From the NCBI GenBank assembly GCA_963739595.1, contig CAVUBA010000037.1, positions 19,627 through 83,626 on the forward strand: a DNA stretch of 64,000 nt, read 5' to 3'. The position numbers were made by a program, and so were the translations under genes. The notes below the pieces were generated by a model, which was not told the DNA's origin, did not search any database, and saw only the letters and a list, made by a program, of their open reading frames with translations. The first letter of the stretch is position 1. Every line of letters begins with the position of its first letter. Below, one piece after another: positions 4,698-42,547 of the stretch. The DNA is from an uncultured Thermoleophilia bacterium (lineage in GTDB: Bacteria > Actinomycetota > Thermoleophilia > UBA2241).

Positions 4698-4707
4698 CAG
4701 GTCGCCG

Positions 4708-5730: not shown

Positions 5731-5814
5731 CCGGCCATTGTACGCCGGGGAGGGAATGATGGAGGCAAACGCGAAGAGGTAGAAGCCAGGCACGAACGAC
5801 CGGGGACCCCCTCC

Positions 5815-6655: not shown

Positions 6656-6707
6656 GACTCTGGAGACGGCGCGGGACTAATCGACGCAGCCCTATTGAGC
6701 CGCGCCT

Positions 6708-8362: not shown

Positions 8363-8426
8363 GGGAGACGTTCCTGGAGAGAGGGTGGGCGGGAACAGGC
8401 GGCTAGTATACTAGACCCCGATTCTG

Positions 8427-9002: not shown

Positions 9003-9003
9003 C

Positions 9004-10017
9004 GTGCGCGCCCTGAGCACACGCGGCGGCCAGCTCGCCGTCGTCACCGCCGCCATCCTGGTGCTCATCATCGGCCTCGCCGCCGGCGGCGCCTTCAACG
9101 GCTGCTCCGGCAAGACCGCGAAGGTGGGGCGGCCGTCCGCCGCCGTGTCCTCCTCACCGCACGGCGGCGTCGCCTACGCCACGGCCAAGGTCCTGGCGCG
9201 CAGCGTCGGCAAGCGCCCGGCCGACAGCTGGGGCGAGATCCACGCGCGCGAGTTCATCACCGGCGCGTTCCAGCAGTACGGCTACTTCCCGCGCACCGAC
9301 GAGTTCCTCGCGACGGCCGGGGGCAGGCGCATCCACTCGGCGAACGTCGTCGCGGTCAAGGAAGGCGACTCCGCCAAGCAGCTCGTCGTCGGCGCCCACT
9401 ACGACTCGGTGGCCGTCGGAGAGGGCTACGTCGACAACGCGACCGGCGTCGGCCTGCTGCTCGAGGTCGCGGCGCGCATCAAGAACGTGCCGACGCCGTA
9501 CACCGTCGTCTTCGTCGCGTTCGGCGCCGAGGAGAACGGCTCTCTCGGCGCCAAGTACTTCCTGAACGGCATGAATGACGTCGAGCGGCGCGCCACCATC
9601 GGCATGATCGACCTGGACGCGCCGGCCGGCGGCGACCAGCTCTCCGTCGCCAGCCGCTTCGGCGGCCCCACGTGGCTGCGCGACGACTCGCTCAGCGCCG
9701 CCGACTCGCTCGGCATCTCGCTGGTGACGAGCCCGGAGGCGCCGGGCCGGCCGGCCGGCACGGTCGCGGCGCCGGCCGACGATGTCCCCTTCGCCGACGC
9801 CGACATCGCCACGGCGATCTTCAGCGCCGTGTCGTGGCAGGCGAGCAAGGGGCGGCACGTGGCCGAGACCGCCTCAGGGCCGCCCATCTGGCATACTCCC
9901 CGCGACACCGTCGCGTACGTCGACAAGAAGTATCCGGGAAGGGTCCGGGACCAGCTGCGCGACATGTCCCGCCTCCTCGAGACCCTGCTCACCAGCAAAC
10001 TGGGAAGACGCCCATGA
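9004..10017 (+). CDS. M28-family aminopeptidase, membrane/lipid anchored
   Basis: N-terminal hydrophobic segment ending ...GGAFNGC, then VVGAHYDSV, DNATGVGLLLE and FVAFGAEENGSLGAKYF. Confidence 0.75.
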   Translation: MRALSTRGGQLAVVTAAILVLIIGLAAGGAFNGCSGKTAKVGRPSAAVSSSPHGGVAYATAKVLARSVGKRPADSWGEIHAREFITGAFQQYGYFPRTDEFLATAGGRRIHSANVVAVKEGDSAKQLVVGAHYDSVAVGEGYVDNATGVGLLLEVAARIKNVPTPYTVVFVAFGAEENGSLGAKYFLNGMNDVERRATIGMIDLDAPAGGDQLSVASRFGGPTWLRDDSLSAADSLGISLVTSPEAPGRPAGTVAAPADDVPFADADIATAIFSAVSWQASKGRHVAETASGPPIWHTPRDTVAYVDKKYPGRVRDQLRDMSRLLETLLTSKLGRRP

Positions 10018-16203: not shown

Positions 16204-16293
16204 ATGGACGCACCCTCGATCATCCTCCTCGTAGTCGCGGCGGCGCTGCTCGTCTACCTGCTGTACGCGCTCCTGCGGCCGGAGAGGTTCTGA
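16204..16293 (+). CDS. kdpF: K+-transporting ATPase subunit F
   Basis: Own translation: MDAPSIILLVVAAALLVYLLYALLRPERF, 29 aa, a single TM with the typical YLxYALxxPExF ending. It lies 16 nt upstream of kdpA and is too short for the ORF track. Confidence 0.7.
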   Translation: MDAPSIILLVVAAALLVYLLYALLRPERF

Positions 16294-16309
16294 CCCTTCG
16301 GGGCTCGCC

Positions 16310-18037
16310 ATGACTTGGGGCATCCTGCAGATCATCGTCTTCCTCGTCGTGCTGGGGCTGATCGCCAAGCCGCTCGGGACGTACATGGCGCACGTCTACC
16401 GCGGCGAGCGCACCTTCCTGCACCCGGTGCTGCGACCGGTCGAGCGCTTCATCTACCGCGTGTGCGGCGTCGACGAGACGCGCGAGATGGGCGTCTCCGG
16501 CTACGTCGTGTCGCTCATCGTCTTCAACTTCATCGTCCTCCTCTTCATCTACGCGGTCCTGCGCCTGCAGGGCCACCTGCCGCTCAACCCGGCCCACGTG
16601 CCGGGGATGGACCCCTGGGTGGCCTTCAACACGGCCGTCAGCTTCGCGACCAACACGAACTGGCAGGTCTACGTTCCCGAGAGCTCGGTGAGCTACCTCA
16701 CCCAGATGCTCGCGCTGGCGCGCGAGAACTTCGTCTCGGCCGCGGTGGGCATGGCCGCGGCGGCGGCCTTCATCCGCGGCCTCACGCGCCGGTCCTCGAG
16801 AGAGCTGGGCAACTTCTGGGTCGACTTCACGCGCAGCTTCCTCTACATCCTGCTGCCGATCGCGATCGTCGGCGCGCTCTTCCTCGTCTCGCAGGGCGTC
16901 GTCCAGAACCTGAACGGTCCCACGCACGCGGTGACCGTCGAGGGCGTCGCGCAGACGATCGCCCAGGGGCCGTTCGCCTCGCAGGAGATCATCAAGGAGC
17001 TGGGCACCAACGGCGGCGGGTCGTACAACGCCAACTCGGCGCACCCGTTCGAGAACCCGACGCCGCTGACTGACTTCATCGAGATGCTCGCGCTCCTGGC
17101 CATCCCCGTGTCGTTCACCTACATGTTCGGGAAGTTCGCGAAGAACCAGCGCCAGGGCTGGGCGCTCTTCGCCGCGGCGATGGCGCTGGTGGTGATGAGC
17201 GTCAGCGTCATGTTCGTCAGCGAGCAGCTGGGCAACCCCAATCTCACCAAGGCCGGCGCGACGCAAGCCGCCACCTCGACGCAGGCCGGTGGCAACCAGG
17301 AGGGCAAGGAAGTGCGGAACGGCATCGGCGCCTCCGTCCTCTGGGCGACCACCACGACGGTCACGTCGACGGGCGCGGTGAACAACGCGCACGACAGCCT
17401 GACGCCGCTGGCCGGCGGCATGGCGATGCTCAACATCGCCCTCGGCGAGGTGGTCTTCGGCGGGGTCGGCGTGGGCATCATGGGCCTGCTCATCTTCGCC
17501 ATGCTCGCGGTGTTCATCGCCGGCCTGATGGTGGGCCGCACGCCGGAGTACCTGGGCAAGAAGATCGAAGGTCGCGAGATGAAGCTCGCGGTGCTCGCGA
17601 CCCTGTACTTCTGCGTCACCGCGCTGGGACTGGCGGCGATCGCCGCGGTGGTCCCGGCGGGCAAGGACGCCGTGCTCAACCACGGGCCGCACGGCCTCTC
17701 CGAGATCCTGTACGCCACCATCTCCCAGACCGGCAACAACGGCAGCGCCTTCGCCGGCATCACCGTGAGCGGCAAGTTCTGGTCGACCGCCGGCGGCCTG
17801 ATCATGCTGTGGGGCCGCTTCTTCTTCATCATCCCGTGTCTGGCGCTGGCCGCCTCACTCGGCGCCAAGAAGGTCGTGCCCGAGTCCAGCGGCACCTTCC
17901 CGACCACCGGCCCCATCTTCGTCGTGCTCGTCGTGGGCACCATCCTGATCGTCGGCGCGCTCACGTACTTCCCGGCGTTCGCGCTCGGGCCGATCGTCGA
18001 GCAGTTCCTGATGAACGCCGGCCACCTCTTCTCATGA
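16310..18037 (+). CDS. kdpA: K+-transporting ATPase subunit A
   Basis: Intact, 575 aa. MTWGILQIIVFLVVLGLIAKPLGTYMA..., NTNWQ, and GTNGGG selectivity-filter-like motifs. Confidence 0.95.
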   Translation: MTWGILQIIVFLVVLGLIAKPLGTYMAHVYRGERTFLHPVLRPVERFIYRVCGVDETREMGVSGYVVSLIVFNFIVLLFIYAVLRLQGHLPLNPAHVPGMDPWVAFNTAVSFATNTNWQVYVPESSVSYLTQMLALARENFVSAAVGMAAAAAFIRGLTRRSSRELGNFWVDFTRSFLYILLPIAIVGALFLVSQGVVQNLNGPTHAVTVEGVAQTIAQGPFASQEIIKELGTNGGGSYNANSAHPFENPTPLTDFIEMLALLAIPVSFTYMFGKFAKNQRQGWALFAAAMALVVMSVSVMFVSEQLGNPNLTKAGATQAATSTQAGGNQEGKEVRNGIGASVLWATTTTVTSTGAVNNAHDSLTPLAGGMAMLNIALGEVVFGGVGVGIMGLLIFAMLAVFIAGLMVGRTPEYLGKKIEGREMKLAVLATLYFCVTALGLAAIAAVVPAGKDAVLNHGPHGLSEILYATISQTGNNGSAFAGITVSGKFWSTAGGLIMLWGRFFFIIPCLALAASLGAKKVVPESSGTFPTTGPIFVVLVVGTILIVGALTYFPAFALGPIVEQFLMNAGHLFS

Positions 18038-18050
18038 GCAGCGTGACGCC

Positions 18051-20107
18051 ATGACCGACGACACCACACCGATGGGCACCACCCGCCCCAAGGCCTCCAT
18101 GCGGCAGCTGATCTGGCCCGCGATCGGCAGTTCGTTCGCCAAGCTCGATCCTCGCGACGTCGCGCACAACCCCGTGATGTTCGTGGTCGAGGTCGGCAGC
18201 GTGATCACGACCATCGCCTTCATCGCCGCCGTCGCGTCCGGACACGGCGAGACGGCCTTCGTCGGCTGGGTGAGCTTCTGGCTCTGGTTCACCGTGCTGT
18301 TCGCCAACTTCGCCACGGCGATGGCCGAGGGCCGCGGCAAGGCCCAGGCCGACACGCTGCGCAGGACCAAGACCGAGACGCTCGCCAACGTCGAGGTCGA
18401 CGGCGCGATCAAGCAGGTCGCCGGCGAACGAGCTGCGCAAGGGCGACATCGTGGTGGTCGTCGCCGGCGAGATCATCCCCGGCGACGGCGACGTCATCGA
18501 GGGCATCGCCTCGGTCGACGAGTCGGCGATCACCGGCGAGTCGGCGCCGGTCATCCGCGAGAGCGGCGGCGACCGCAGCGCCGTCACCGGCGGCACGCGC
18601 GTGCTCTCCGACCGGATCAAGGTGCGGATCACGTCCGACCCGGGCCAGACCTTCCTCGACCGCATGATCGCGCTCGTCGAGGGCGCCGAGCGGCAGAAGA
18701 CGCCCAACGAGATCGCGCTCAACATCCTCCTCGCCGGGCTCACGCTCATCTTCCTCATCGTGATCGTCACCCTGCAGCCCTTCGCCATCTACAGCGACGC
18801 GAAGGTCTCGGTGACGATCCTGATCGCCTTGCTCGTCTGCCTGATCCCCACGACCATCGGCGGTCTGCTCTCGGCGATCGGCATCGCCGGCATGGACCGC
18901 CTCGTGCGCCACAACGTCCTCGCCATGTCGGGGCGCGCTGTGGAGGCCGCCGGCGACGTCGACGTGCTGCTCCTCGACAAGACCGGCACGATCACGCTCG
19001 GCAACCGCCAGGCGTCGGAGTTCATCCCCATGCCGGGGGTCACCGTCGAGGAGCTCGCCGACGCCGCCCAGCTGGCGCTCGCTCGCCGACGAGACGCCGG
19101 AGGGCCGCTCCGTCGTGGTGCTGGCCAAGCAGTTCGGCATCCGCGGCCGTCACATCGACCCGGAGCACGCCGAGTTCGTCGAGTTCACGGCGCAGACGCG
19201 CATGAGCGGCATCGACCTCGACGGCCACTCGATCCGCAAGGGCGCCGGCGACGCGGTCCTCGCCTGGGTCCGGCAGCACGGCGGCGAGGTGCCGTCCGAA
19301 CTCGAGTCTACGCTGGCGCAGGTCTCCGGCCAGGGCGGCACCCCGCTCGCCGTGGCGATGGACGACCGCGCCCTCGGCGTCATCCACCTCAAGGACATCG
19401 TCAAGGGCGGCATCCGCGAGCGCTTCGACCAGATGCGCGCCATGGGCATCCGCACCGTGATGATCACCGGCGACAACCCGCTCACCGCGGCGGTGATCGC
19501 CGAGGAGGCCGGCGTGGACGACTTCCTCGCCGAGGCCACGCCGGAGACCAAGATGGAGCTCATCAAGCGCGAGCAGCAGCAGGGCAAGCTCGTCGCGATG
19601 ACCGGCGACGGCACCAACGACGCGCCGGCGCTCGCGCAGGCCGACGTCGGCGTCGCCATGAACACCGGGACCATGGCCGCCAAAGAGGCCGGCAACATGG
19701 TCGATCTCGACTCCAACCCCACCAAGCTCATCGAGATCGTGGAGATCGGCAAGCAGCTGCTCATCACGCGCGGCGCGCTCACGACCTTCAGCATCGCCAA
19801 CGACGTGGCCAAGTACTTCGCCATCATCCCGGCGATGTTCATGGTCGCGTTCCCGGAGCTCGCGGGACTCAACGTCATGCGCCTGCACTCCGCCAACAGC
19901 GCGATCCTCGCGGCGGTCATCTTCAACGCCATCATCATCGTGCTGCTGATCCCGCTGGCGCTGCGCGGCGTGAAGTTCCGCGCGATCCCGGCGGCGGCGC
20001 TCCTGCGCTACAACCTGCTCGTCTACGGGCTCGGTGGAGTCATCGCGCCGTTCATCGGGATAAAACTCATCGACATGCTCCTTGTGGCGTTCCACCTGAC
20101 GAGCTGA
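18051..20107 (+). CDS. kdpB: K+-transporting ATPase subunit B (P-type); two frame changes
   Basis: Three pieces: 18051.., 18451.. ([11 protein letters not shown]) and 19115.. ([29 protein letters not shown]). Changes at about 18420 and about 19085. Confidence 0.9.
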
Positions 20108-20119
20108 GGGCAGACGACG

Positions 20120-20699
20120 ATGAGGAACCATCTGAACATCGCGATCCGCATGACCATCCTGACCGCGATCCTGCTCGGCCTCCTGTATCCACTGGTCATC
20201 ACCGGCATCGCCCAGGTCGTCTTTCCGGGCGCGGCAAACGGCAGCCTCGTGAAGGTGAACGGCCAGGTCGTCGGCTCGAGCCTGATCGCCCAGGGATTCA
20301 CCCAGGCCAAGTACTTCCAGCCGCGACCCTCGGCGGCCGGCAAGGGCTACGACGCCATGGCGTCGTCCGCCTCCAACCTCGGACCGACGAACCGCGCGCT
20401 CATCGACCGCGTCAGCGCCGCGGTCGACCAGGCGGTGCGGCAGGACCCGGGGCTGCGGAGACGGGAACGTTCCTGTCGACATGGTCACGACGTCCGGCAG
20501 CGGGCTCGACCCGGACATCACCGTCGCCAACGCGCGCGCGCAGGCTCCGCGCGTGGCCGCGGCGCGCGGCATGAGCCTCGCCGCGGTCCTGCGGCTGGTG
20601 GCCGCGCACACCACCGGCCGCACGTTCGGCTTCCTCGGCGAGCCGCGCGTCAACGTGCTCGAGCTGAACCTCGCACTCGACGCGGCTCACGGAGGCTGA
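20120..20699 (+). CDS. kdpC: K+-transporting ATPase subunit C; one frame change
   Basis: [43 protein letters not shown]...SNLGPTN. It then continues in the 20481 frame ([29 protein letters not shown]). The change is at about 20460. Confidence 0.85.
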
Positions 20700-20701
20700 C
20701 G

Positions 20702-21844
20702 ATGTCCGCCGAGGAGTCGGCCGACGAGGTCTACTCGCTGCGGACACTGCGCAAGCGCGGCCGCCTCAAGGTCTTCCTCGGGTACGCACCCGGAGTCGGC
20801 AAGACCTTCACGATGCTCGGCGAGGCGCACCGGCGCTGCTCGCGCGGCGAGGACGTCGTCATCGGCTTCGTCGAGACGCACGGCCGCGAGGAGACGGCCG
20901 AGATGGTCGAGGGTCTCGAGCAGGTGCCGCTCAAGCGCCTCACCTACCGCGGCAAGGAGTTCGAGGAACTCGACACCGACGCCGTGATCGCGCGCCGGCC
21001 GGAGTGGGTGCTGGTCGACGAGCTGGCGCACACCAACATCCCCGGCGCGCGGCACGAGAAGCGGTGGCAGAGCGTGGCCGAGATCCAGGCCGCCGGGATC
21101 AACGTCATCACCACGGTCAACATCCAGCACGTCGAGAGCCTGAACGACACCGTGTACGACATCACCAGCGTCCGCGTGCAGGAGACCGTCCCGGACGCCG
21201 TGATCGACACGGCCGACGAGGTCGTGCTCGTGGACCTCACGACCGCCGCGCTGCTCAACCGCCTGCGGCGCGGCGTCGTCTACGACCTCGACAAGATCCC
21301 CGGCGCGCTGGCCAACTTCTTCAAGCGCGAGAACCTGGTCGCTCTGCGCGAGCTGGCCCTGCGCAAGACCGCCGAGGAGGTCGACGAGTTCCTCGAGCGC
21401 ATCACGCAGGGAGAGGAGGCGCTGCACCCCTGGGCCGCCGAGGAGCGCATCCTGATCTGCATCCGGCCCAACGGCGTCGCCGCCAAGCTCATCCGCAGAG
21501 GCCACCGGCTCGCGAAGCGCTTCCAGGGGCGCTTCTGGGTGCTGCACGTGCGCACGCACGCCCAGGTCGGCGGCAGGCGGGAGATCGAGCAGCTGTTCGA
21601 GCTCGCCGAGGAGCTGGGCGGGAAGAGCGTCGAGGTGGAGGGCGACGCGGTGGCGGAGGAGATCCTGCGGTTCGCCCAGGAGCATCGCATCACCTACATC
21701 GTCCTCGGCCAGTCCCGCCGCTCCCGGATGAGCGAGATCGTCCGCGGGTCGCGCATCGCGCACATCATCCGCGAGGTCGACCACATCGACGTCCTGGTCG
21801 TGGCCGATCCGAGCAAGTCGCCGCCCGTCCCGTCGGAGGCCTGA
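20702..21844 (+). CDS. Stand-alone KdpD N-terminal sensor domain + Usp domain protein
   Basis: [23 protein letters not shown]..., DELAHTN, and [17 protein letters not shown] form the KdpD-N (P-loop-like) domain. It is followed by a Usp-like C-terminal half (ILICIRPNG...ITYIVLGQS). The start is 3 nt after the kdpC stop. Intact. Confidence 0.85.
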
Positions 21845-26203: not shown

Positions 26204-26749
26204 ATGGACATCACCCTGAGGGAGTTCACCCGGGACGACATCGCTCGTCTCATCGGCTGGGTCAACTCGGGCGGACCCGACTTCTTCGTGCGCTGGGCGG
26301 GCACGGCGTTCGACTATCCGCTGACCGAGGCGCAGCTGGAGGCGCATCTGGCCGAAGCCGAGGGCACGGACGCGACGCGACGCCTCTTCGCCGCCGTCGA
26401 CGACGCCTCCGGTGAGGTCGTGGGGCACGCCGAGCTCAGCCGCGTCGATCGCAAGAACCGGTCGGCTTCGATCTCGAGACTCCTCGTCGGCGACCCGGCC
26501 GCGCGCGGCAAGGGCATCGGCGCGCAGATCGTCAGCCGCGTGCTGGACGTCGCCTTCGGCGAGATGTCCCTGCATCGCGTGGACCTCTACGTGCTCGAGT
26601 TCCACGTCGCCGCCCTCAGCATGTACAAGGGCCTCGGCTTCAAGACCGAGGGTCACCTCGTCGAGGCGCGCCGCGCCGGCGGCAAGTACTGGAACGCCTA
26701 CTACATGGCGATGCTCGAGGAGGAGTGGCTCGGCCGCGACTCCGCGTGA
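26204..26749 (+). CDS. GNAT-family N-acetyltransferase
   Basis: ...LLVGDPAARGKGIGAQIVSRVLDVAF...LGFKTEG. Intact, 181 aa. Confidence 0.8.
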   Translation: MDITLREFTRDDIARLIGWVNSGGPDFFVRWAGTAFDYPLTEAQLEAHLAEAEGTDATRRLFAAVDDASGEVVGHAELSRVDRKNRSASISRLLVGDPAARGKGIGAQIVSRVLDVAFGEMSLHRVDLYVLEFHVAALSMYKGLGFKTEGHLVEARRAGGKYWNAYYMAMLEEEWLGRDSA

Positions 26750-26859
26750 CCCCGGGCCCGGCACTGTCCACTTCGGCAGGGCCCGCCTTGACTCGCTCCC
26801 GGCAGGTGTCGTCTACTGGCGGCTGCGCACCGCCGTGCGCGTTCCCGAAGGAGCCGCCC

Positions 26860-27021
26860 GTGGGGCACAGGTTCAGCATCGAGACCGGAGGCCGTCACGC
26901 CGCGCGCCCCTTGCGCAGCGAGCAGCTCACGGCCGCCCACAGCCTGTTCCGCCACGCACGCCCCGGCCGCTACTTCGGCGGTCTCTGGTTCAAGGTCTTC
27001 AGCGAACGCGGACCCTGCTGA
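26860..27021 (+). CDS. Small ORF (53 aa) of unknown function with a good SD, upstream of the MttB-family gene
   Basis: GAAGGAG lies 7 nt upstream of GTG 26860. Sequence: VGHRFSIETGGRHAARPLRSEQLTAAHSLFRHARPGRYFGGLWFKVFSERGPC. Third positions are mostly G/C by eye. No family recognised. Confidence 0.35.
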   Translation: MGHRFSIETGGRHAARPLRSEQLTAAHSLFRHARPGRYFGGLWFKVFSERGPC

Positions 27022-27125
27022 CGCCACAGCAGGACCGGCCGCCGAAGGGCCGCGCGAAGCGCGCGAGCCCGGCGGCCACTCACCGCTCGACCACCGCCGA
27101 AGGACCACCTACGAAGGGGATCACC

Positions 27126-28529
27126 GTGAACCGAGCCACACTCAGGGTCTGGGACGACGACGCCTGCAGCCGCGTACACCAGGCGTCGCTGGCGGTGCTG
27201 GAGCAGACCGGCGTCGACGTGAAGGACGAGCACGCACGCGGCCTGTTCGCCGCCGCCGGCGCCGCAGTCGACGGGCGGCGGGTCCGGCTGCCCGCCGCGC
27301 TCGTCGAAGACGCCGTCGCAAGCGCCCCGCGCGCCTGGACGCTGCGGCCGCGCGGCGGCGACACCACGCCGCTCGAGCTGCGTGACGGCGCCGGGTACTT
27401 CGGCAGCGGACCCGACTGCCTCTACGTCTCCGATCCGGAGACGGGCAAGCGCCGGCGCGCGCTGCTCGCCGACGTCGAGGCCGCCGCGCGCGTCGCCGAG
27501 GCGCTGCCCAACGTCGACTTCGTGATGAGCATGGCGCTGCCGGACGACGTCGCCAACGAGGTGGTGGACGTCGTCCAGTTCGGCGCCATGCTGCGCGGCA
27601 CACGCAAGCCGATCGTCGTCTCGAGCCCCTTCGGCGGCGAGACGCTGTACACCATGCACGAGATGGCGGCGGCGGCCGGCGAGGCCGGCAGCTTCGCCTG
27701 CCTCGCCATGAGCTCGCCGCCGCTGCAGCTCGACGACGTCTGCTGCACCAAGGCGCTCGCCTGCGCCGACCTCGACGTCCCGCTGGTGCTCGCGCCGTCC
27801 GTGTCGGCCGGCGCGCAGGGGCCGGCGTCGCTCTCGGCGTGCGTGGCCGTGGCCAACGCCGAGGTGCTCGCCGGCCTCGTCGTGCACCAGCTGGGCAAGG
27901 CCGGCGCCCCCTTCGTCATGGGCGTCGGCACGGGCGTGATGAACATGCAGTACGCCGTGGAGGTCTACAACTCGCCCGGCGTGTTCCTCGGCAACCAGGC
28001 GCAGCTGGACCTGATCCGCTGGTACGGCCTCCCGAGCTGGCACTACGCCGGCCACTCCGACAGCAAGGCGCTGGACGAGCAGTGGGCGCTCGAGGTGGGC
28101 ATCGCCACGATCATGGGCGCGCTCTCGCGAGCGACGCTGCTCCACGACGTCGGCTACCTCGAGAGCGGCCTGCAGAGCGCGCTCGAGGGGCTCGTGCTCG
28201 GCGACGAGGTCGCCGGCTACGCCCGCGCCCTGCTCACCGAGCTGCCGGTGACCGACGAGGCACTCGCGCTCGCCGAGGTCGCGGCCGTCGGCCCCGGCGG
28301 CAACCACCTCGGCACGAAGATGACGCGGCGGCACTTCCGCGAGTTCTGGCGCGCGTCGCTGATCGACCAGAGCACCTTCGACCGCTGGTCCGCCGCCGGC
28401 AGCCCGACGCTGCTGGAGCGGGTACGCGCCCGCCTCGCCGAGATCCGGGCGGCGGGCCCGGCGTTCACCCTGGACGAGGAGACGCTGCGGACGCTCGACC
28501 GCCTGGCGTCCGGCGCCGGCGTGGCCTGA
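27126..28529 (+). CDS. MttB-superfamily (trimethylamine methyltransferase-like) protein, non-pyrrolysine type
   Basis: Family-typical N-terminus (...ACSRVHQASLAVLEQTGVDVKDEHARGLFAAAGAAVDGRRVRLPAALVEDAVASAPR...), 467 aa, no in-frame TAG. GTG start is preceded by GAAGGGGA. Confidence 0.7.
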   Translation: MNRATLRVWDDDACSRVHQASLAVLEQTGVDVKDEHARGLFAAAGAAVDGRRVRLPAALVEDAVASAPRAWTLRPRGGDTTPLELRDGAGYFGSGPDCLYVSDPETGKRRRALLADVEAAARVAEALPNVDFVMSMALPDDVANEVVDVVQFGAMLRGTRKPIVVSSPFGGETLYTMHEMAAAAGEAGSFACLAMSSPPLQLDDVCCTKALACADLDVPLVLAPSVSAGAQGPASLSACVAVANAEVLAGLVVHQLGKAGAPFVMGVGTGVMNMQYAVEVYNSPGVFLGNQAQLDLIRWYGLPSWHYAGHSDSKALDEQWALEVGIATIMGALSRATLLHDVGYLESGLQSALEGLVLGDEVAGYARALLTELPVTDEALALAEVAAVGPGGNHLGTKMTRRHFREFWRASLIDQSTFDRWSAAGSPTLLERVRARLAEIRAAGPAFTLDEETLRTLDRLASGAGVA

Positions 28530-34668: not shown

Positions 34669-34810
34669 ACCTTTGCTACATAGCTCTTAATGGCCTGAAG
34701 GCCTGATTCGGTTGACGCCCCAAGACGACCTCTTCTACCGTATTTCGTGCATTAGGCCACTCCATTGCGAACCGAGTCAGGCCGTCCCGAACCCGAAGTC
34801 AGGAGAGCCC

Positions 34811-35583
34811 GTGACCAGACGCACTTCGTTCCATTTCGTCGCCGCCTTCGGCGTCGCAGCCGCCGCCATCGCCCTCACAGTGGCCGTGGTCGGTGCGAAG
34901 CCCGCCCAGGCGCTGCCGAGCTACCAGAAGACCTGCTCCGCCTGTCACTCAGCCACGCCGTCCGGCACGGTGACCGCGACCCCGAGCAAGCCGACCCTCA
35001 ACCCGGGCGAGGCGTACAGCGTCCAGGTCACCGTCGGGCTCAGCTCCTCCGGCAAGGCCGGCTACTGGATCAGCGCCAACGATGCGTCGACTCCTGCCGT
35101 GAGCATCGCCGGCGGCCCCGGCACCTCGCCGCTCACCGCCAGCATGAAGGCGCCGGGCGCGGCCGGCACGTACACGTACAAGGTGTGGGGCGCCAAGGGC
35201 ACGCCCGGCTCCGGCCAGGCGACCTCCACGACCTACCAGATCACCGTCAGCAGCAGCGGTGGGACCGTCGACACCGTGGCGCCGACCACTCTCGCGCCGA
35301 AGCGCAGCCAAGGTCGTCAAGGGCAAGAAGGCGACCCTGAAGTACCAGGTCAACGACGCCGCCCCCAACCTCGGCACCGCGACCGCCGTCATCAAGATCA
35401 AGAACAAGGCCGGCAAGGTCGTCAAGACCCTCAGGCCGGGCTCCAAGGCCGTCAACGCGCTCCAGAAGCGCGAGCTTCACCTGCAAGCTGGCGAAGGGCA
35501 CGTACAAGTTCTACGTGACCGCGACCGACGCCGCGGGCAACAAGGCCAGCAACACCGCGGTCAACAAGCTGACCGTCAGGTAA
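34811..35583 (+). CDS. Secreted protein with one CxxCH motif and Ig-like (FlgD-Ig/PKD-style) C-terminal domain; two frame changes
   Basis: The GTG follows AGGAGA. Signal peptide ...AIALTVAVVGAKPAQA, then LPSYQKTCSACHS (CSACH). The C-terminus is ...KGKKATLKYQVNDAAPNLGTATAVIKIKNKAGKVVKTL... and ...FTCKLAKGTYKFYVTATDAAGNKASNTAVNKLTVR. Changes at about 35300 and about 35475. Confidence 0.6.
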
Positions 35584-35632
35584 GACCCGGGTGATCGGCG
35601 GCCCGACCAGGCCGCCACACTCGCCCGGAGTG

Positions 35633-35670
35633 ACGACGACGGGGCCGGCGAACGCCGGCCCCGTCGTCGT
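35633..35670 (+). terminator. Strong GC hairpin after the CxxCH gene
   Basis: acgacgacggggccggcg-aac-gccggccccgtcgtcgt (17-18 bp stem) followed by tt. It begins 50 nt after the stop. Confidence 0.6.
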
Positions 35671-35715
35671 TTCCGCGTGTGCGCCGGCGCGTTCGCGCCG
35701 GCGTCTGTGGCGTGA

Positions 35716-35744
35716 TGGCGGAGCGACATGGGAGTCGAACCCAC
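35716..35744 (-). repeat. 29-nt exact copy of the 3' end of tRNA-Sec (att-site scar)
   Basis: tggcggagcgacatgggagtcgaacccac is identical to 40300-40328 in the same orientation. Flanks diverge on both sides. There is no complementary 5' acceptor strand nearby, so this is not a second tRNA. Confidence 0.85.
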
Positions 35745-35797
35745 TTTCGGTCTTCAGCCGCAGGAGCCGCCCCAATCCATACCCGTCCGCAGGGAGC

Positions 35798-35817
35798 CGG
35801 GCACCAAACGGGCACAA
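35798..35817. repeat. 20-nt direct repeat, copy 1 (candidate arm-type site)
   Basis: cgggcaccaaacgggcacaa is identical to 40205-40224. It lies 53 nt inside the island from the left 29-mer. Confidence 0.7.
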
Positions 35818-36197
35818 GAAACGGCGCGCCACGGGACAGCCTTCCCTACCCCAAGGCCCACCCCCCGCAGGCGAGACGGCCGGTGCCGGCGTCGAAGCTT
35901 CCGCGAACCCGCGCGAGAACCACCGGGGGTCTTTACAATCGGCACCCCACCCTTATGCGGTGGTGTTCTCTTGCCTTTGCCCTGGCCCTGATTCTTGTGA
36001 TGCTCGGGTTCGGATGGTCTCTACGCGCTTCTTGTCGTTGATCTGTTTGTCGCATTGCTCTATGGAGCCTTCCTGAGCTTCAAGTGCGGCGCCTTCGACA
36101 GGTCGAGAGAACGCAAAGCGGACGCGGCCGCTGAGAGAAGGATGAGGCTCGCGGCGAGTAGGACTCGTCGCCCGCTACGCGACGGGTCCTCCGCCGC

Positions 36198-36297
36198 ATG
36201 CGCTGCCCAACTGCGGGACGGCGCGAAGTTCTGCCGTGAGTGCGGTGCGCCGATTGCGTCTGCGCCGGCAGTGCTGCAGGTCTCCCAAGCGCAGTAG
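36198..36297 (+). pseudogene. Degenerate double zinc-ribbon ORF start (MRCPNCGT...DGAKFCRECGAPIA), readable only across three frames
   Basis: ATG at 36198 gives MRC. The next frame gives PNCGT and the 36055..36297 frame gives DGAKFCRECGAPIASAPA. Together these form the common CPxCG...FCxxCGAP zinc-ribbon N-terminus. No convincing downstream body. Hairpin H1 follows at 36637. Confidence 0.35.
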
Positions 36298-36636
36298 CGT
36301 CCCGGCCCAGCTTGCGCCCCGTGGCGATTGTCTACCCGGAGACCGCTTCGGAGCCTTGCTGGGGCCTCCCGCTGGCCTCTACGGCGCCGTTGCGGCCCGT
36401 CGTAGCCGACCTCAAAGTGCGGAGGACTGCCGGCGGGTCGCCATGCAACGGCGCACCGTCGCGGCTCCGGTGCTATGGTCGATTTTAGGAACCGTCAGAA
36501 TCAGACCACCGCGCCGGCAGCTCAATCGCCTGGCGCCCCCCGGCCGCCTTCCAGGGCGGCCGCCGCGGTTCTCGTCCCACCTCTAGTCTCGCTTCTGTTC
36601 GTGTGGGCGAAGTCCCCGAACGGTGGCGTCACAGAA

Positions 36637-36668
36637 GAGGCCCGCTGCCTTCACGGGTGGCGGGCCTC
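36637..36668. repeat. Island GC hairpin H1
   Basis: gaggcccgctgccttcacgggtggcgggcctc. A 13-14 bp stem (two G-U-compatible positions) with a 4-nt loop. Confidence 0.8.
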
Positions 36669-36884
36669 TCCTGCCCGAGCGTGGAGATGCCCGCCACATC
36701 TCGGGAGAATGCTGACAAGTCAGCCGTCCAAGACGTGCCTACCTTGTCGCTTCCCCGGCGCGGCACGCCGGAAGCTCATCCCTGACGTGCCGTGCCGCGC
36801 CATGCCGAGCATCTGCGACGGGCACCTCTATAGTGTGCGCCTTCGGCGGCCACCACAACCGTTGGCCTTTGCGGTTCAGGCAAG

Positions 36885-36960
36885 GAGGCCCGCTACCCTC
36901 ACGGGTGGCGGGCCTCTGTGCGCGGCAAGCGGCCCGGACCGGGCCACCGGGCGTCCGGGC
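36885..36960. repeat. Island GC hairpin H2 plus about 45-nt conserved flank
   Basis: gaggcccgctaccctcacgggtggcgggcctc followed by tgtgcgcggcaagcggcccggaccgggccaccgggcgtccgggc. The flank is about 80 percent identical by eye to the flank of H4. It lies about 155 nt downstream of the GGDEF stop on the minus strand. Confidence 0.8.
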
Positions 36961-37073
36961 CGAATGGCGTGCAGGCTGCTGCACCACACCCCAGAAGTCC
37001 CGAGCGAGTCGGCCGGGAACAGGATAACGCTGCCTTCGTCCGGGCCACCGAACAGGATGACCCAGCACGCTGC

Positions 37074-38062
37074 CTACGCCGCCGTGTTGGACTCGTCGGT
37101 GTCCTGGACGCCCGCTTGCCCACCGGGCTGCGCGGCCCGCCAGACGACACGTGCGCCCGTGGCCCGTGCTGGACCGGGCTTGCGCTCGTACATGGACTCA
37201 TCGGCCTGGCGCAGCAACTCGTCCAGCGAGATCGCCTGCGGAGCTCGGGAGTAGCTCACGCCGAGAGTCAAGGCGAGGTCGAAGCCGAGACCCGAGTCCG
37301 CCAGCAGCCCCACGATCTGCCGCTCCAGTCGCGCTGACAGTGCATCGATGTCATGGTCCTCATTGCTTCCCAGGTCGGCGACGATGGCGAACTCGTCACC
37401 GCCGATGCGGGCCACGATGTCAGCCTCGCGAAAGGTAGCCGTGAGCGCCCGAGCGGCAAGCACGAGGGCGCGATCGCCGGCGTCGTGCCCGTAGGTATCG
37501 TTGACCGCTTTGAAGTCGTCGACGTCGGCGAAGACCAGCGCCTGCGCCGCCCCCGAGCGGCGACTCTCCACGAGGCGCCGTTCGGCCAGGAGCGCGAAGC
37601 CGCGCCGGTTGTGCAGCCCCGTGAGGTCGTCATGCAGCGCAGCGGCGCGCAGTTCGCCCTCGGTCGCGCGCTGCCGGGTCACGTCGCTGGCGGCGACGAT
37701 GACGGACTGGAGTGCACCCGCGGAGTCGCGCGCGGCGTTCAGCGACCCGCTGACCAGGAGGCGCTCGCCGCCGCTCCTTCGCCAGTGGTTCTCGAAAGCG
37801 AACGTCGCGCCGCCCGCTCGCAGGCTCCGGAGGCCGTCGGTGAACGTTCTCGCGCCTCGGGGATCGGCAGGGCGTCGAGGAAGTCCCTGCCTCGCAGGTC
37901 TCCACCACGGTAGCCTGTGGCCACTTCGAAGGCGTGGTTCACGCGCAAGATGCGGCCCTGATCGTCGAGGATTACGATGAGCATGTCCGCAGCCTCGAGC
38001 ACCGCCGCAAGGAGGTCGCGCTCTCCCTCGATCGTCTTCCTCGTCTGGGCGGGACTTGTCAT
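37074..38062 (-). CDS. PAS-GGDEF diguanylate cyclase; frame-disrupted once
   Basis: The ATG at 38062 follows GAGGAG. PAS domain: LLAAVLEAADMLIVILDDQGRILRVNHAFEVATGYRGGDLRGRDFLDALP. It continues as FTDGLRSLRAGGATFAFENHWRR...VTRQRATEGELRAAALHDDLTGLHNRRGF...IGGDEFAIV. The change is at about 37855. Confidence 0.8.
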
Positions 38063-38184
38063 GGTCTCCTCAGGCCTCGAACGGTCGCGGCAGGCGGGTG
38101 CTGCTGTGCTGCGTCTTCGCCTCTGTGGTCCAGGGCGGCGCTGACTCGCGCTCCAGCCGGGTTTCGGTGCGGCGGTCGCTCTCG

Positions 38185-38460
38185 TCAGGCGGCCTCTGGG
38201 TGCGTCTCCGGCCCAGCGGCCGCCGCACCGTGCAGCCCGGACAGGACGCAGAGGCGACACAAGCATTGGGGTTCATGCTCCCACCCGTAGGACGGAGACT
38301 GCCAGGACGCCACGATCTGCCTCCGGCCCCTCCTCTTGGGTTGCCAGAAGCGCAGGCTGTCGAAGTAGAACACCGCTCCCCGGTCGTCTTGCGCCCACGC
38401 TGGTCGACCTTCCGTCAAGACCTGGAACCGGCTGTAGCGCGGTCGCTCGTGGTTCCCCAT
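38185..38460 (-). CDS. Possible small hypothetical protein (91 aa)
   Basis: GGGGGAGG lies 7 nt upstream of ATG 38460. Sequence: MGNHERPRYSRFQVLTEGRPAWAQDDRGAVFYFDSLRFWQPKRRGRRQIVASW... Mixed third-position composition. No family recognised. Confidence 0.25.
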   Translation of the reverse strand: MGNHERPRYSRFQVLTEGRPAWAQDDRGAVFYFDSLRFWQPKRRGRRQIVASWQSPSYGWEHEPQCLCRLCVLSGLHGAAAAGPETHPEAA

Positions 38461-38730
38461 GGCCCACCTCCCCCTCGCTCGAAGTCTTTCCCCGGGACTG
38501 CGCACCACACCGCCGTTGCCTGCTCTGAATACACTGAAATGGAACGCGCCGGCGCGGCGTGTAGGAGAGCGATGCGCCCCGTATGCACACGTGCTCACGA
38601 CCGCGTGACCAGAACACGCGGTCGGTCATGCCCGTCTCGTTGACGCAGGGCGACACGGGGCTGGTTTGATGGAAGCCTGCACACCTGCGTCTTGATGTTG
38701 AACGTGAGCCGCCAGCAGCCGGCTGCTGAA

Positions 38731-38762
38731 GAGGCCCGCTGCCCTCACGGGCAGCGGGCCTC
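38731..38762. repeat. Island GC hairpin H3 (likely terminator of the 38793 gene)
   Basis: gaggcccgctgccctcacgggcagcgggcctc. A perfect 14-bp stem, 30 nt downstream of the stop at 38793 on the minus strand. Confidence 0.8.
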
Positions 38763-38792
38763 TTCCCTTTGGCCGTATCGACGCCGTTCAGC

Positions 38793-39548
38793 TCACGGCG
38801 CGATAGTGAAGCTACCGGTCGGGAGGGAGTCGACGTAGGGCTTGTACATGATGGGATGCCGCGCGGTCCCCTCGATGGGCGCGATCATGTCGGTCGTGGT
38901 GTGCGAGAGCCGCTCGGTGACGTCCAGCGCATGCGTGCCCGGTGCTGGCGTCTTCAGGGGGATGAACAGGTAGTTGACCCAGAGTCCGGCCCGGATCTTG
39001 GCATTGAAGGGCTGGGTCGTCGGGTCGAGTTCGCCCCGGAAGGCGCCCGTCCAGAAGCCCTTTGACTGATTGAAGGTCGTCTTCACTACGCCGTCAACCT
39101 TCACCCGGTACTGGAGGTAGTTCCCCACGCTGTTGGCGCGGCCGAGCGTCATCGTGACCCACCCAGAGCCGACGACAACGTCGTAGTCGTTGGGGATGAA
39201 ATCGCCGACGGCATGGTCGATCTCGGTCGCGAACGTCCCGTCGGGGAACTCGAACCAGAAGCCGTAGCGTCAGGACGAGCCCGGCGACGACTCACCGATG
39301 TGCTTCGCTGCGCGGGACCCCTGGTGCGCTTCGAGCGTCACAGCACGCCAACGCACGATCCCGCCCTCACGCCTGGTGAGGTCGGCATCGAGCGATTCAC
39401 GTGGCCTCGGCTCCTCCAGTCGCGCGCGCAGCTCATCGACGGGGAGACCGCAGGCCGGACATCCCAGAAGGGCGGGGAAATCGCCGAGGACCGCAGACGC
39501 ATCGATGAGGGAGCGGCATTGCGGACAGGCGGTTTCGGGCGGCACCAT
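38793..39548 (-). CDS. Hypothetical protein: N-terminal zinc ribbon + C-terminal unknown (beta-rich) domain, interrupted by one in-frame TGA at 39270-39272
   Basis: AGGGGGA lies 7 nt upstream of ATG 39548. Sequence: MVPPETACPQCRSLIDASAVLGDFPALLGCPACGLPV...GESSPGSS-TGA-RYGFWFEFPDGTFATEIDHAVGDFIPNDYDVVVGSGWVTMTLGRANSVGNYLQYRVKVDG... The two track ORFs (39270..39749 and 38793..39152) are in the same frame. Region 39153-39269 is GC3-rich and has no in-frame start. Confidence 0.5.
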
Positions 39549-39753
39549 CGGTTCATCCCCCTGCGCTTGCGGTCGCACTCGCCAGACATCAGAAGACCGC
39601 ACCCTATCACGAGGTTCAGGCGGCGAAAGACCAGCGCCGTTCACGGGGCCGCATCGTCCCCCTTGCCGACGCTCCGGATGTCGCCTACGGTCGCCCTCAC
39701 CGAACGTTCTGTGCGTGTGGGCGTAGTCCCTGAAAGAGTAGCCGGGCACCGAA

Positions 39754-39830
39754 GAGGCCCGCTGCCCTCGCGGGCAGCGGGCCTCTGTGCGGGTCGAGCG
39801 GCACGGACCCCGCCACCAGGCGTCCGGGCG
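39754..39830. repeat. Island GC hairpin H4 plus about 45-nt conserved flank
   Basis: gaggcccgctgccctcgcgggcagcgggcctc followed by tgtgcgggtcgagcggcacggaccccgccaccaggcgtccgggc. Homologous to H2 and its flank. Confidence 0.8.
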
Positions 39831-40222
39831 GCTGCCAGTAGAGCGCCTCGCGGAGCAGGGGCCCCCTCGCCATGACGAAGATTCGGAGGTTCTTGAAGTC
39901 CGTGCGGAAAGCGACTTGGAAGGGTCGGCCCGGCGTGAGGCTCAGGTTGCCCAGTCGAGTACCGCATTAGTGGGGTCGCGCCCCCTGTCGGGTTGCTCCC
40001 GTGTGCTTCCGCACGAGGCCCCGACGCACACCGGGCGCACGCGGCAACGCCGATGATGAGAAGCCGAAGAAGTCGACGCGCTTGAGCGTCTGCGGCCACC
40101 TTCTGCCGGGAGTGCAAGAGGAAGCCGTGGCCAATCTCGAAGCGATGCTGAAGCGCGTCGAGAATGGGCCCGACAAGGCCCGACAAGCAGGTCGGCTGAC
40201 AATACGGGCACCAAACGGGCAC
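39790..40222. other. Ambiguous coding remnant next to selC: tyrosine-integrase C-terminus-like on the plus strand, or a CxxC small ORF on the minus strand
   Basis: Plus strand: ...RVLPHEAPTHTG (compare the PHxLRHT box), then about 28 codons later ...STRLSVCGHLLPGVQEEAVANLEAMLKRV (compare Y-G-H-L-[FL]-P...A..L[DE], with Cys in place of the catalytic Tyr). Minus strand: GTG 40222 gives VPVWCPYCQPTCLSGLVGPILDALQHRFEIGHGF... One extra base would join it to a very GC3-rich stretch, LGNLSLTPGRPFQVAFRTDFKNLRIFVMARGPLLREALYWQPPGRLVAGSVPLDPH, which ends at hairpin H4. Confidence 0.3.
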
Positions 40223-40224
40223 AA
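40205..40224. repeat. 20-nt direct repeat, copy 2 (candidate arm-type site)
   Basis: cgggcaccaaacgggcacaa lies 75 nt inside the island from the tRNA 3' end. Confidence 0.7.
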
Positions 40225-40299
40225 ACCCGGGCGCCCGGGGTGACTGCGATCAAGAACCTCTGCCTCACTGTCCTCGAGCAAAAGCCCTGCAAAATGCAG

Positions 40300-40397
40300 T
40301 GGCGGAGCGACATGGGAGTCGAACCCACCCAGGACGAGAGCATCGCCCCGCAGACGGTTTTGAAGACCGCGGCAGTCACCGGACCACGAGCCGCTCC
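40300..40397 (-). tRNA. selC: tRNA-Sec (anticodon UCA)
   Basis: Minus-strand read: GGAGCGGC-TC-GTGGTC-CGGT-GACTGC-CGCGGT-CTTCAAA-ACCGTC-(long variable arm)-GTGGG-TTCGACT-CCCAT-GTCGCTCC-G-CCA. It has an 8-bp acceptor stem, a 6-bp D stem with a 4-nt loop, a TCA anticodon and an encoded CCA, about 98 nt in total. The D loop, anticodon loop and T loop match E. coli selC as I recall it. Confidence 0.9.
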
Positions 40398-40475: not shown

Positions 40476-42333
40476 TCACTCCTCCTCGGCGGCTCCTCGG
40501 CGACGGCGCAGCGCGAGCCAGACCACGACGACGACCACGAGCGCGACGACCGCCCCGATGACGGCGATCGTCGTCGCGCTCGTGCCGCCGCCCGAGCCTC
40601 CGGCCACGGCGGCCTTCGGCTTCAGGTTCAGGTAGCTGTCGCGCACGTAGCTCGTGTAGAACGCGGCGCCCGTGCCGCCGTACATCCGCGTCCAGCCGTC
40701 CCACCTGGCCGTGTTGACCGCCTCGAGCTTGTCCGGGTAGTCGGTGGCGATCTCCGGCGACTGCTCGTAGAAGATCTGCTGCGCCCGCCAGACCAGCTCC
40801 TTGCGCTTCTGCGGGTCGAGCGTCGTGTTCGCCTGCGTTCACGACCGCGTCGTACTCGGCGTTGGACCAGCACGGCTCGTTCCAGTTCTCGATCTGCGCC
40901 GTGGTGAAGCTCGCCAGCGTGTCGCCGGGGTCGGCGTACCCGTCGTAGTTCCACAGGTACATGTCGAAGTCGGGGCTGTACGTGTTGCCCTGGTACGCCC
41001 AGATGCTGTCGTAGTAGATGCCGTCGTCCATGACCTGGTACTCGATCTTGAGGCCCAGGTCGCGGAACCAGCCGGTGAGCAGGCTGCCGGTCTTCTGGCT
41101 CTCCGGCGACTCGGCGCGGGCCCACAGGCGCAGCTTGATGGGCTTGCCGTCTCTTGTCCTCGCGGATGCCGTCGCCGTCGCGTGTCCTTGTAGCCGGCGG
41201 CGTCGAGCATCGCCTTGGCCTTCGCCGGGTCGTAGGTGTACGCTGGCGTCGGCCGGCGGCTGCCAGTGGTAGTCCGGGTCCACCCACGAGTCCGGCGTCA
41301 TGATGGTCGTGCCCGGGCTGGCGCGGCCGGCCCAGGCGAGGTCGACGATCTTCTGCCGGTCGATGCCCCAGTTGAGCGCCTGGCGGAAGGCCACGTCCTT
41401 GAGCACCGGGTTGCCGCGGCTGGTGCCCTCGTAGCAGTTCAGCGAGAGGTAGTCCCAGGTGAGCAGGTTGTACGAGATGGGCGTGAAGCCCGGCGTGCTC
41501 TCGATCTTGGGGAACTGCGCGGACGGGATGCCCCAGGCGGCGTCGAGGGTCCCCGAGAGCAGGTCCTGGGTCATCGTGTCCGGGTTCTGGTAGGTGACGA
41601 AGAGGATCTCGTCGATGGTCGGCTTCTGGCCCCAGAACGTGGGGTTCGCGACCATGCGCACGTAGTCGCCCTTCTTGACCTCGACCGTCTGGAAGGGCCC
41701 GGTGCCGATGATGGGCGGCTTGTTCTGGTACGAGGCGCCCGCCGCCTTGGGGCTCACCTTGCTCCAGACGTGCTCGGGCAGGATCGGGATCCAGGTGGTG
41801 ATCATGTTCGCCTTGGGCTTGCTGCAGCGGATCTCGACGGTGAGGTCGTCGACCGCCACGGCCTTCTCGATGTACGTCGTGAGGCTCGACAGGGCGCCCA
41901 TCTGGTTGTCGACGATGTAGTTGTAGGTGAAGGCCACGTCCTTGGCCGTGAACGGCACGCCGTCCTGCCACTTCACGCCGTCGCGCAGGTGGAAGGTCCA
42001 CGTCTTGCCGTCGGGCGAGGTCTCCCAGGAGGTGGCGAGGTCGGGCGTCGGCTTGAGGTCGAGCGAGTAGCCGGTGAGGAAGTCGTAGTTGAGCAGCCAG
42101 ATCTCGTAGGCCGACGTCTCGGCCCCGATGAACGGGTTGAGGTTGTCCGGGTCGTTGGTCCAGCCCACGTGCAGGACGACCTTGTCGCCGCCGGGCGAGG
42201 CGCTCGGGTCGGCCGCCAGCGCGGACCCGAGTCCCGACGCCAGCCCGGCGGCCAGCAGGCCGGCGACCAGGGCGAGCAGGAGCAGACGCGGACGCCGGTG
42301 GCGCACGCCGGACTGCGACATGGGGTGGGTCAT
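40476..42333 (-). CDS. ABC transporter substrate-binding protein, family 5 (peptide/nickel type) with C-terminal TM anchor; four frame changes
   Basis: The ATG at 42333 follows GAGGGGGGA. A signal/TM segment is followed by ...VLHVGWTNDPDNLNPFIGAETSAYEIWLLNYDFLTGY...WTFHLRDGVKWQDGVPFTAKDVAFTYN... The C-terminus is ...GGSGGGTSATTIAVIGAVVALVVVVVVWLALRRRRG. Changes at about 41215, 41180, 41155 and 40850. No permease or ATPase genes are adjacent. Confidence 0.8.
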
Positions 42334-42547
42334 TCGAGGTCCCCCCTCGTTCGTCCCCCGCGGCGGCCGCTGAGCCGCCGTCCCGATGGCCGGCCGCCAC
42401 GAGCCGCAGAGCACTCTGCGGGCTCGCCCCCTGCGGCCGGCGCCGATGTCCTGCGAGTATGGGCCGCACCGGGAGGGCAGGCAAGGGCACGCCGGGACTG
42501 GCCTCGGTGAGCTGCGAGGTTTGTCCAAGAATCGGCCCCGAACACGA

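Follow-up and report, generated by a model that had tools for sequence, protein, structure and literature searches.

The question raised by this locus is why a tRNA-Sec gene (selC) should be followed, 4.6 kb away, by a second copy of its own last 29 nucleotides, and what the DNA between the two copies is. The locus lies in a stretch of 64,000 nucleotides, hereafter the window, from an uncultured Thermoleophilia bacterium (assembly GCA_963739595.1, contig CAVUBA010000037.1, positions 19,627 to 83,626), and an original prediction made from these letters alone had read the repeat as the footprint of an island integrated in selC. We found that the 4555 bp between the copies (35745-40299) are very probably the decayed remnant of a site-specific integrative element that inserted in the 3' part of selC. 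Empty sites in relatives, a remnant of an integrase gene, arm repeats and homology to intact sibling elements all support the proposed integration; what the window holds is not an intact island but its integrase-less, decayed remnant.

The only tRNA that ARAGORN called in the window was a 98-nt tRNA-SeC with anticodon tca (UCA in the RNA) at 40300-40397 on the minus strand, and at the same place Infernal matched all 91 positions of the Rfam RF01852 model with 64.9 bits (E=7.6e-12), the gathering score being 47; the tRNA-Sec fold proposed for this segment is thus recognized by both programs. When Rfam was searched at a permissive threshold, tRNA-Sec remained the sole credible match. The gene is 99% identical to selC of four related loci (L015, L021, L035 and L053; related loci and contigs are given L numbers throughout). 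Its last 29 nt, GTGGGTTCGACTCCCATGTCGCTCCGCCA, occur exactly twice in the window, both times on the minus strand: once inside the intact tRNA gene (40300-40328), the core of the left attachment site (attL), and once as a displaced selC 3' fragment at 35716-35744, the right attachment site (attR), directly followed by the original host flank. Reading the sequence at both places showed that identity ends abruptly at the two edges, as had been claimed, and a search of the window with up to three mismatches allowed detected no third copy, with none expected by chance or in shuffled sequence. The repeated block starts precisely with the first T-stem base, spans the T stem-loop, the 3' acceptor strand and CCA, and contains an inverted repeat, GTGGG...CCCAT, around a 7-nt loop. 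Viral contigs gave no match to the 29-mer. Domains of SelA, SelB or SelD were absent from the 20 largest well-coded open reading frames (ORFs) of the window, in line with the earlier remark that it carries no selA, selB or selD gene.

If the segment was inserted, relatives should exist in which the flank left of 35716 abuts the tRNA directly, and such sites were found. When one genome per species was scanned for the 29-mer, 57 loci emerged, almost all of them from metagenome-assembled genomes (MAGs) of uncultured Thermoleophilia. The match fell within a full tRNA-SeC gene in 53 of the 57, and the loci lay in selC or in a displaced selC fragment, so the 29-mer is not the dispersed repeat that the original prediction had considered as a possible refutation. 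BLAST comparisons of the window with these loci showed conserved synteny to either side of selC. The L015 ortholog of window positions 35715 to 35300 (83.7% identity) begins at the very base after the tRNA CCA, in L053 the ortholog of the window attR flank (88.6%) directly follows the CCA of selC, and L040 and L048 are arranged likewise. The junction sequence is ...CGCTCCGCCA|TCACGCCACAGACGCCGGCGCGAACGCGCCGGCGCACACGCGG in the window, after the 29-nt copy at 35716, and ...CGCTCCGCCA|TCACGCCTACGACGCCTGGGGCGAACGCGCCGGCGCACACGTAG in L015, after its intact tRNA. The empty-site junctions of L015 and L053 are thus nearly identical to the window attR flank, and the whole of 35745-40299 is absent from them. 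Two G+C-rich hairpins just outside attR (35633-35697; inverted repeats I9 and I23) are kept directly after the tRNA in L015, L053, L037 and L021; inverted repeats and conservation mark them as a terminator of host selC or of a convergent gene. Since the hairpins directly follow the tRNA at empty sites, 35633-35697 represents the original host terminator region.

The same scan showed that the window is not alone. Second selC fragments of 58-73 nt were present in L003, L007, L010, L022, L002/L017, L035/L037 and L055/L056, and a decayed one in L021, amounting to at least eight loci or locus pairs among the 57, indicating that selC is a recurrent integration hotspot in Thermoleophilia. L017 carries an intact integrase directly beside selC. 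The L021 locus, whose flanks are 88-92% identical to those of the window, holds a different insertion of 3.55 kb at the same selC site (3831-7388 in tRNA orientation) with an HTH excisionase-like ORF and a 521-aa ORF, and in its displaced tRNA fragment mutations are numerous, among them the loss of 7 nt from the T loop. Upstream of selC the loci differ as well: a GGDEF-type gene of ~2 kb lies between the SBP gene and selC in L034, L035, L053, L044, L027, L010, L048 and L054, while the SBP gene directly abuts selC in the window, L020, L021 and L041, indicating that the upstream side is also variable.

The tRNA-proximal end of the inserted segment identifies what kind of element it was. Window positions 40082-40177 on the plus strand encode LSVCGHLLPGVQEEAVANLEAMLKRVENGPDK, of which 25 of 32 residues (78%; E=6e-15) are identical to residues 403-434 of the tyrosine integrase of L065, a metagenome contig described below. 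Protein and DNA alignments to L065 and to a second contig, L067, place this 3' remnant of 32 codons at 40082-40199, with the stop codon at 40197-40199; it is the last 8% of an integrase gene, lying where an integrase is expected. Along the DNA, homology to L065 and L067 extends from the tRNA across arm and R motif (see below) to the integrase 3' end and ceases upstream of ~40075. The codon of the catalytic tyrosine, TAC in L065, is TGC (cysteine) at 40091-40093, and the frame is lost ahead of the conserved stop through a 10-nt tandem duplication (40170-40189). The remnant became recognizable only once the intact sibling integrase had been found, Pfam alone having shown none: six-frame Pfam scans of 35700-40330 contained no recombinase domain. 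A stretch further upstream reading HEAPTH, considered as possible integrase homology for its resemblance to HELRHT, was discarded because its BLASTP similarity was not significant.

Between the integrase stop and selC lies an exact 20-mer, CGGGCACCAAACGGGCACAA (TTGTGCCCGTTTGGTGCCCG on the tRNA strand), hereafter the R motif, composed of two GTGCCCG half-sites 11 nt, or one helical turn, apart. The window has two exact copies, none being expected by chance, both on the minus strand: one at 40205-40224, 75 nt inside attL, and one at 35798-35817, 53 nt inside attR. In L065, L067, L069, L070 and L035 the motif occupies the same position between the integrase stop and selC, and on the attR side of L069 and L037 R-like sites are found ~140-165 nt from a 66-nt tRNA remnant. 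A non-core motif repeated in both arms, here 75 and 53 nt from the core copies, is a feature of lambda-type heterobivalent integrases, and the placement suggests that the R motif is a candidate arm-type integrase-binding site. The integrases of the siblings have matches to SAM_3 and to the catalytic domain; PF14657 is listed for more distant homologs only. Immediately 3' of CCA, on the minus strand at 40281-40299, the shared arms also hold an element-borne junction motif, CTGCATTTTGCAGGGCTTT, with the palindrome CTGCA-TTT-TGCAG. The junction CCA|NNGNATTTTGCAGG is common to the window, L017 (2602-2620), L035, L065 and L069 and is absent at empty sites. The palindrome could serve as a terminator of the rebuilt tRNA gene or as a protein-binding site. 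L035 is another integrase-less selC island that retains both the junction motif and the R motif (2950-3340, minus strand); beside its R motif, at the usual place of the integrase, an unrelated ORF starts with MARLEDLTPGARVRGVL.... The integrase remnant and the R arm repeats, as well as a frameshift in a PAS-GGDEF gene discussed below, are additions to what had been noticed in this DNA before.

Intact siblings of the element were recovered from metagenomes and compared with the window (L065-L070) by pairwise alignment. Scanning metagenome contigs for the R motif gave four matches, L065-L068, where a rough estimate assuming a collection of ~10^12 bases allows for one or two by chance; L066 and L068 have no nearby tRNA and no extended homology and were treated as chance matches. 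L065 shows the order and spacing of the window, from tRNA-SeC over a homologous arm and the R motif to the integrase stop, together with a complete integrase (395/437 aa; 437-aa ORF) that matches Pfam Phage_integrase and SAM_3. L067 carries the R motif and the 3' two-thirds of an integrase gene 88% identical to that of L065. Searching proteins with the L065 integrase revealed close relatives (P0008-P0011) at 85-100% identity, and the integrase beside selC in L017 is 39% identical to it. In L069 (9.5 kb) the integrase spans 8216-9403; behind it come the R motif, with one mismatch, at 9409-9426 and, at 9503-9528, the 3' end of selC, after which the same junction, CTGCATTTTGCAGGGCTTTTG, appears. 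At its opposite end the contig has a selC fragment beginning in the anticodon loop (ACTTCAAAACCGTCTGCGGGGCGATGATCTCGTCCTGGGTGGGTTC...). Among the other L069 genes are those for an excisionase-like protein (HTH_17), a repressor-like protein (HTH_3) and a replication protein resembling DnaD, and no virion gene was recognized in it by Pfam or PHROGs. A 20.4-kb JGI contig has the L069 gene order with chromosomal genes on either side. The two ends of L069 (1-60 and 9490-9537) overlap by 14 nt within selC, and joining them would restore an attP-like site of the full 66 nt; perhaps the contig represents an excised circular element or an assembly collapse of the repeat. Taken as a family, L065, L067, L069, L070 and the JGI contig share with the window the junction motif, the arm, the R motif (74-76 nt from the CCA) and the integrase C-terminus, and differ from it in having a full integrase (395 aa), a selC fragment of ~66 nt and a longer arm on the attR side.

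This last difference bears on whether the segment could still move. The displaced fragment of L069 and of L035/L037, the latter sharing the window's flank at 87-88% identity, is ~66 nt long and starts in the anticodon loop, so that the 29 nt of the window are 37 nt shorter, and the attR-side arm of the window is ~135-150 nt shorter than in the siblings. The siblings' 66-nt remnants and longer arm indicate that the 29 nt are probably the result of a later event, a deletion of ~135-150 nt that would have taken away the distal arm together with the fragment's first 37 nt. On the simplest reading such a deleted attR site would be incapable of excision. We also considered that the segment is a functional non-autonomous element, resembling the cis-mobilizable elements (CIMEs), which would keep both attachment sites and both R sites and be excised and moved in trans by an integrase of the L065 family, encoded at another place in the genome or on an incoming element, with 29 nt as its true block of identity. 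For this speak the exactness of both R copies, which equal the copies in L065 and L067 even though the arm DNA around them is only ~75-85% identical, the layout of the 29-nt block, beginning at the 5' base of the T stem and forming an inverted repeat round a 7-nt loop as a core site is expected to do, and the existence of L035 as a second integrase-less islet with an R motif. Yet the 66-nt remnants of L069 and L035/L037, with an R-like site ~140-165 nt upstream, show a stretch that the attR side of the window lacks; motif and Pfam scans found no integrase of the L065 family within the 64 kb; and the interior, with its truncated genes, looks like scrap rather than maintained cargo. We therefore consider a mobile islet unlikely, and the decayed remnant, most likely fixed and no longer able to excise, remains our preferred reading.

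The body of the island differs from its flanks in codon composition. Flanking genes have a G+C content of third codon positions (GC3) of 0.95-1.0, against mostly 0.65-0.85 in 35.25-40.4 kb, where the leading phase changes often. The third positions are thus less GC-saturated, as the original prediction stated, and the signal is a weak one; bulk G+C is little different, at ~0.65-0.70 in 500-nt windows of the island against 0.70 for the whole window. The minus-strand gap noted earlier at about 36.06-36.74 kb was also found, with no minus-strand ORF of at least 60 aa within 35945-36739. Six-frame Pfam scans of the island yielded only a GGDEF domain (E=1.3e-32), a frame-split PAS domain and a weak zinc-ribbon fragment on the plus strand at 36196-36258 (Zn_Ribbon_1, E=1.9e-4, below the curated cut-off), likely a gene remnant. 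Its best-coded ORF is 38793-39269 (GC3 0.89), whose homologs of 201-221 aa are 72-87% identical and form a 202-aa family of hypothetical proteins. Nucleotide identity to this family is 87.6% over 38727-39265, beginning at the terminator hairpin, and then stops sharply, indicating that the gene (38793-39265, minus strand) is truncated at its 5' end and has lost ~45 codons and its promoter. Full-length homologs of the 202-aa family occur in unrelated contexts, none near selC or an integrase, and do not indicate a parent element. Phage and plasmid collections showed only generic similarity to the island, in the region of the GGDEF gene.

That region, 37074-38062 on the minus strand, holds by Pfam and ORF evidence a gene of the diguanylate cyclase type, the PAS-GGDEF cargo of the original prediction. 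Both domains are present; the gene is however broken, the N-half of PAS lying in one frame and the C-half in the frame of GGDEF, with the frameshift near 37850. This frameshift may be an assembly error. Compared with two orthologs, the SBP gene beside selC (40476-42490) contains at least three insertions of a single base, and the frames of kdpB, kdpC and kdpD (18845-21844) are split or fused, with KdpC and KdpD domains in one ORF. Such indels in conserved genes indicate that the long-read assembly is unpolished rather than that these genes are true pseudogenes. Because the assembly is indel-rich, single frameshifts are weak evidence of decay, while sharp truncations of homology are robust, a caution that applies to indel-rich long-read MAGs at large. 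The abundance of single-base indels in conserved genes, and the origin of most related loci in long-read MAG projects, also raise the thought that the second tRNA end is false and was produced by a chimeric join of strain variants. We find this scarcely credible, the least probable of the explanations considered: the junctions have the anatomy of attL and attR, with element arm and R motif inside and host flank outside, the same architecture recurs in independent assemblies (L010, L003, L007, L022, L035/L037 and L069), and indel errors cannot make a 4.5-kb insertion with matching ends. The kdp potassium-uptake operon with its KdpD sensor (16235-21844) and a homolog of the MttB-family methyltransferases (26325-28529), located upstream in the window, are ordinary chromosomal genes unrelated to the island; a gene for a secreted Ig-like protein (34712-35594) is also broken by single-base indels.

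The GGDEF gene suggests a further explanation, in which native DNA was rearranged locally, for instance by transposition or duplication, so that a neighboring GGDEF gene was moved and the tRNA end copied. Several relatives do have a GGDEF gene between the SBP gene and selC, and the window lacks it there but has one inside the island. Compared over ~55 residues with the GGDEF genes that relatives carry upstream of selC, the island GGDEF is, however, only 43-50% identical, indicating that it is a paralog and not the relocated native gene. Nor would a rearrangement account for an integrase remnant, an R motif and a junction motif at ends that are homologous to bona fide integrated elements, or for an attR flank whose every base at the junction agrees with the empty site. 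We regard a local rearrangement as very improbable.

A second component of the interior is a family of repeats of ~90 nt, in which a perfect hairpin of 15-17 bp (AGAGGCCCGCTGCCC-TCAC-GGGCAGCGGGCCTCT) is preceded, in full copies, by a box ACGTTCTGTGCGTGTGGGCGAAGTCCCCGAAACGGTGGC. We built a covariance model, R1, from four full copies. On the plus strand of the window it matched full copies at 39700-39792 (97.7 bits; 290 nt upstream of the integrase remnant) and 36588-36675 (83.5 bits), a terminator-like hairpin copy at 38691-38769 (52.2 bits), 28 nt past the stop of the truncated 202-aa-family gene, and at 36858-36923 a further hairpin copy that includes the repeat's right-hand flank (42.5 bits). 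Within the window the hairpin family and a second repeat of 20 nt occur only inside the island, which agrees with the private repeat family that had been described there. Elsewhere, L008 has two full copies (293-385 and 3130-3222) downstream of its selC, L069 a weaker copy in its interior (2914-3031), and L067 box-dominated copies at 701-783 and 1659-1745, one of which directly abuts the 5' break of its integrase. L067 thus resembles the window in having a box repeat upstream of a 5'-truncated integrase, directly adjacent in the one and 290 nt off in the other. In other genomes, R1 also picks out the 202-aa-family gene's terminator. Where the stem varies, the changes read as G-U wobbles on the plus strand and as mismatches on the minus, a hint that the structure forms on the plus strand. 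No Rfam family matches the repeat, and a match to sX12 (31.6 bits against a gathering score of 106) was set aside as merely the hairpin. The repeat may act as a terminator combined with a leader, as a small RNA or as a module that is mobile or recombinogenic. An integron cassette array, brought to mind by the alternation of genes and repeats beside a tyrosine recombinase, was ruled out, as the integrase is of the phage type (Phage_integrase and SAM_3, PHROG 1) and the repeats, perfect hairpins behind a box, do not resemble attC.

Together, these observations are consistent with the following course of events. An element with a tyrosine integrase, whose intact relatives measure ~9.5 kb, would have entered the 3' part of selC in a chromosome of the Thermoleophilia (Actinomycetota). 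Its attachment site would have carried a copy of the tRNA 3' segment, such that recombination rebuilt the tRNA gene at attL (40300-40397) and left the displaced host segment at attR (35716-35744), joined to the host terminator and flank. During subsequent decay the integrase would have been reduced to its last 32 codons, the rest being lost or replaced and the remainder inactivated, and the excisionase, repressor and replication genes found in intact siblings would have disappeared. The interior would have come to consist of unrelated pieces, namely the truncated gene, the PAS-GGDEF gene and the box-plus-hairpin copies, and the attR side would have been shortened by ~135-150 nt, trimming the tRNA remnant from 66 to 29 nt.

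Several points weigh against this reconstruction. No intact recombinase is present, and integration is deduced from scars and homology. As single-base indels are common in the assembly, the frameshifts of PAS-GGDEF and of the integrase remnant may partly be sequencing errors. The start of the 29-nt block at the first T-stem base also fits an attachment site of the T-loop type, a variant that would cross over in the T loop and require just these 29 nt, and the later deletion is to that extent only probable. Window positions 35830-40075 have no similarity to the L069 interior in the regions tested, which makes the history of replacement a conjecture, and no remnant of the first L069 gene was found near the window attR. 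One may also imagine the region downstream of selC as a hypervariable cassette locus, in which R-bearing integrase-less islets (the window and L035) are moved in trans by L065-family integrases while the box-plus-hairpin repeat acts as a mobile or recombinogenic module that delivers or swaps small gene cassettes. Box-plus-hairpin copies occur in both the window and L008, the box alone in L067 and a weaker copy in L069. We hold this idea to be unlikely; the decayed integrative element is the reading that we retain.

The result offers a clean, bounded case of tRNA-gene integration in the Thermoleophilia, a deep and almost uncultured class of actinobacteria, with empty sites, intact siblings and a decayed copy side by side, and the sibling integrase with its attachment site (selC core, R motif and junction palindrome) is a candidate recombination system for high-GC Actinomycetota. 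How does it compare with known systems? Integrative elements in selC are familiar from enterobacteria, where the locus of enterocyte effacement (LEE), SHI-2 and the retronphage phiR73 are integrated in this gene. In tRNA-gene islands a regenerated target gene and a displaced fragment mark the ends (Islander, PMC4383910), and selC is a known integration site and hotspot in Enterobacteria, including the Escherichia coli strains that make Shiga toxin (STEC) (PMC6174562, PMC2704930). Of the signs on which Islander relies (PMC4383910), the locus has the tRNA with its displaced fragment, an empty site and a distinct composition, whereas of an integrase gene it keeps the 32-codon remnant alone, the full gene being present in its siblings L065 and L069. 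The likeness to enterobacterial selC islands and to Islander entries extends to the tRNA 3' target, the regenerated gene, the fragment in direct orientation, a tyrosine integrase gene proximal to the tRNA and the distinct codon composition. The likeness is one of anatomy. On the other side, the host is an uncultured member of the Thermoleophilia, the integrase is a remnant of 32 codons, the island is very small (4.55 kb), and apart from the PAS-GGDEF gene it has no recognizable adaptive module.

Two further classes of element invite comparison. The CIMEs of Streptococcus thermophilus are integrase-less derivatives of integrative elements, and the island resembles them in having no recombination genes of its own and in its probable derivation by loss of core modules. 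Both repeat copies and both R motifs are present, but its attR is 37 nt shorter than in the siblings; this apparent shortening relative to the norm of its own family argues for a dead remnant, and mobilization of the islet in trans appears unlikely. Actinomycete integrative and conjugative or mobilizable elements (AICEs), such as pSAM2 and SLP1, are similar in their actinobacterial host, in their tRNA-gene target and in the int-xis-rep module seen in the sibling L069; they differ in that no FtsK/Tra-type, Nudix or RepSA-type gene was detected in L069 with Pfam and PHROGs. selC thus emerges as a recurrent hotspot in Thermoleophilia as it is in Enterobacteria, used by at least two related integrase lineages (39% identical), with displaced fragments of 29-73 nt, and the event is of an ordinary kind, documented here in a little-studied lineage.

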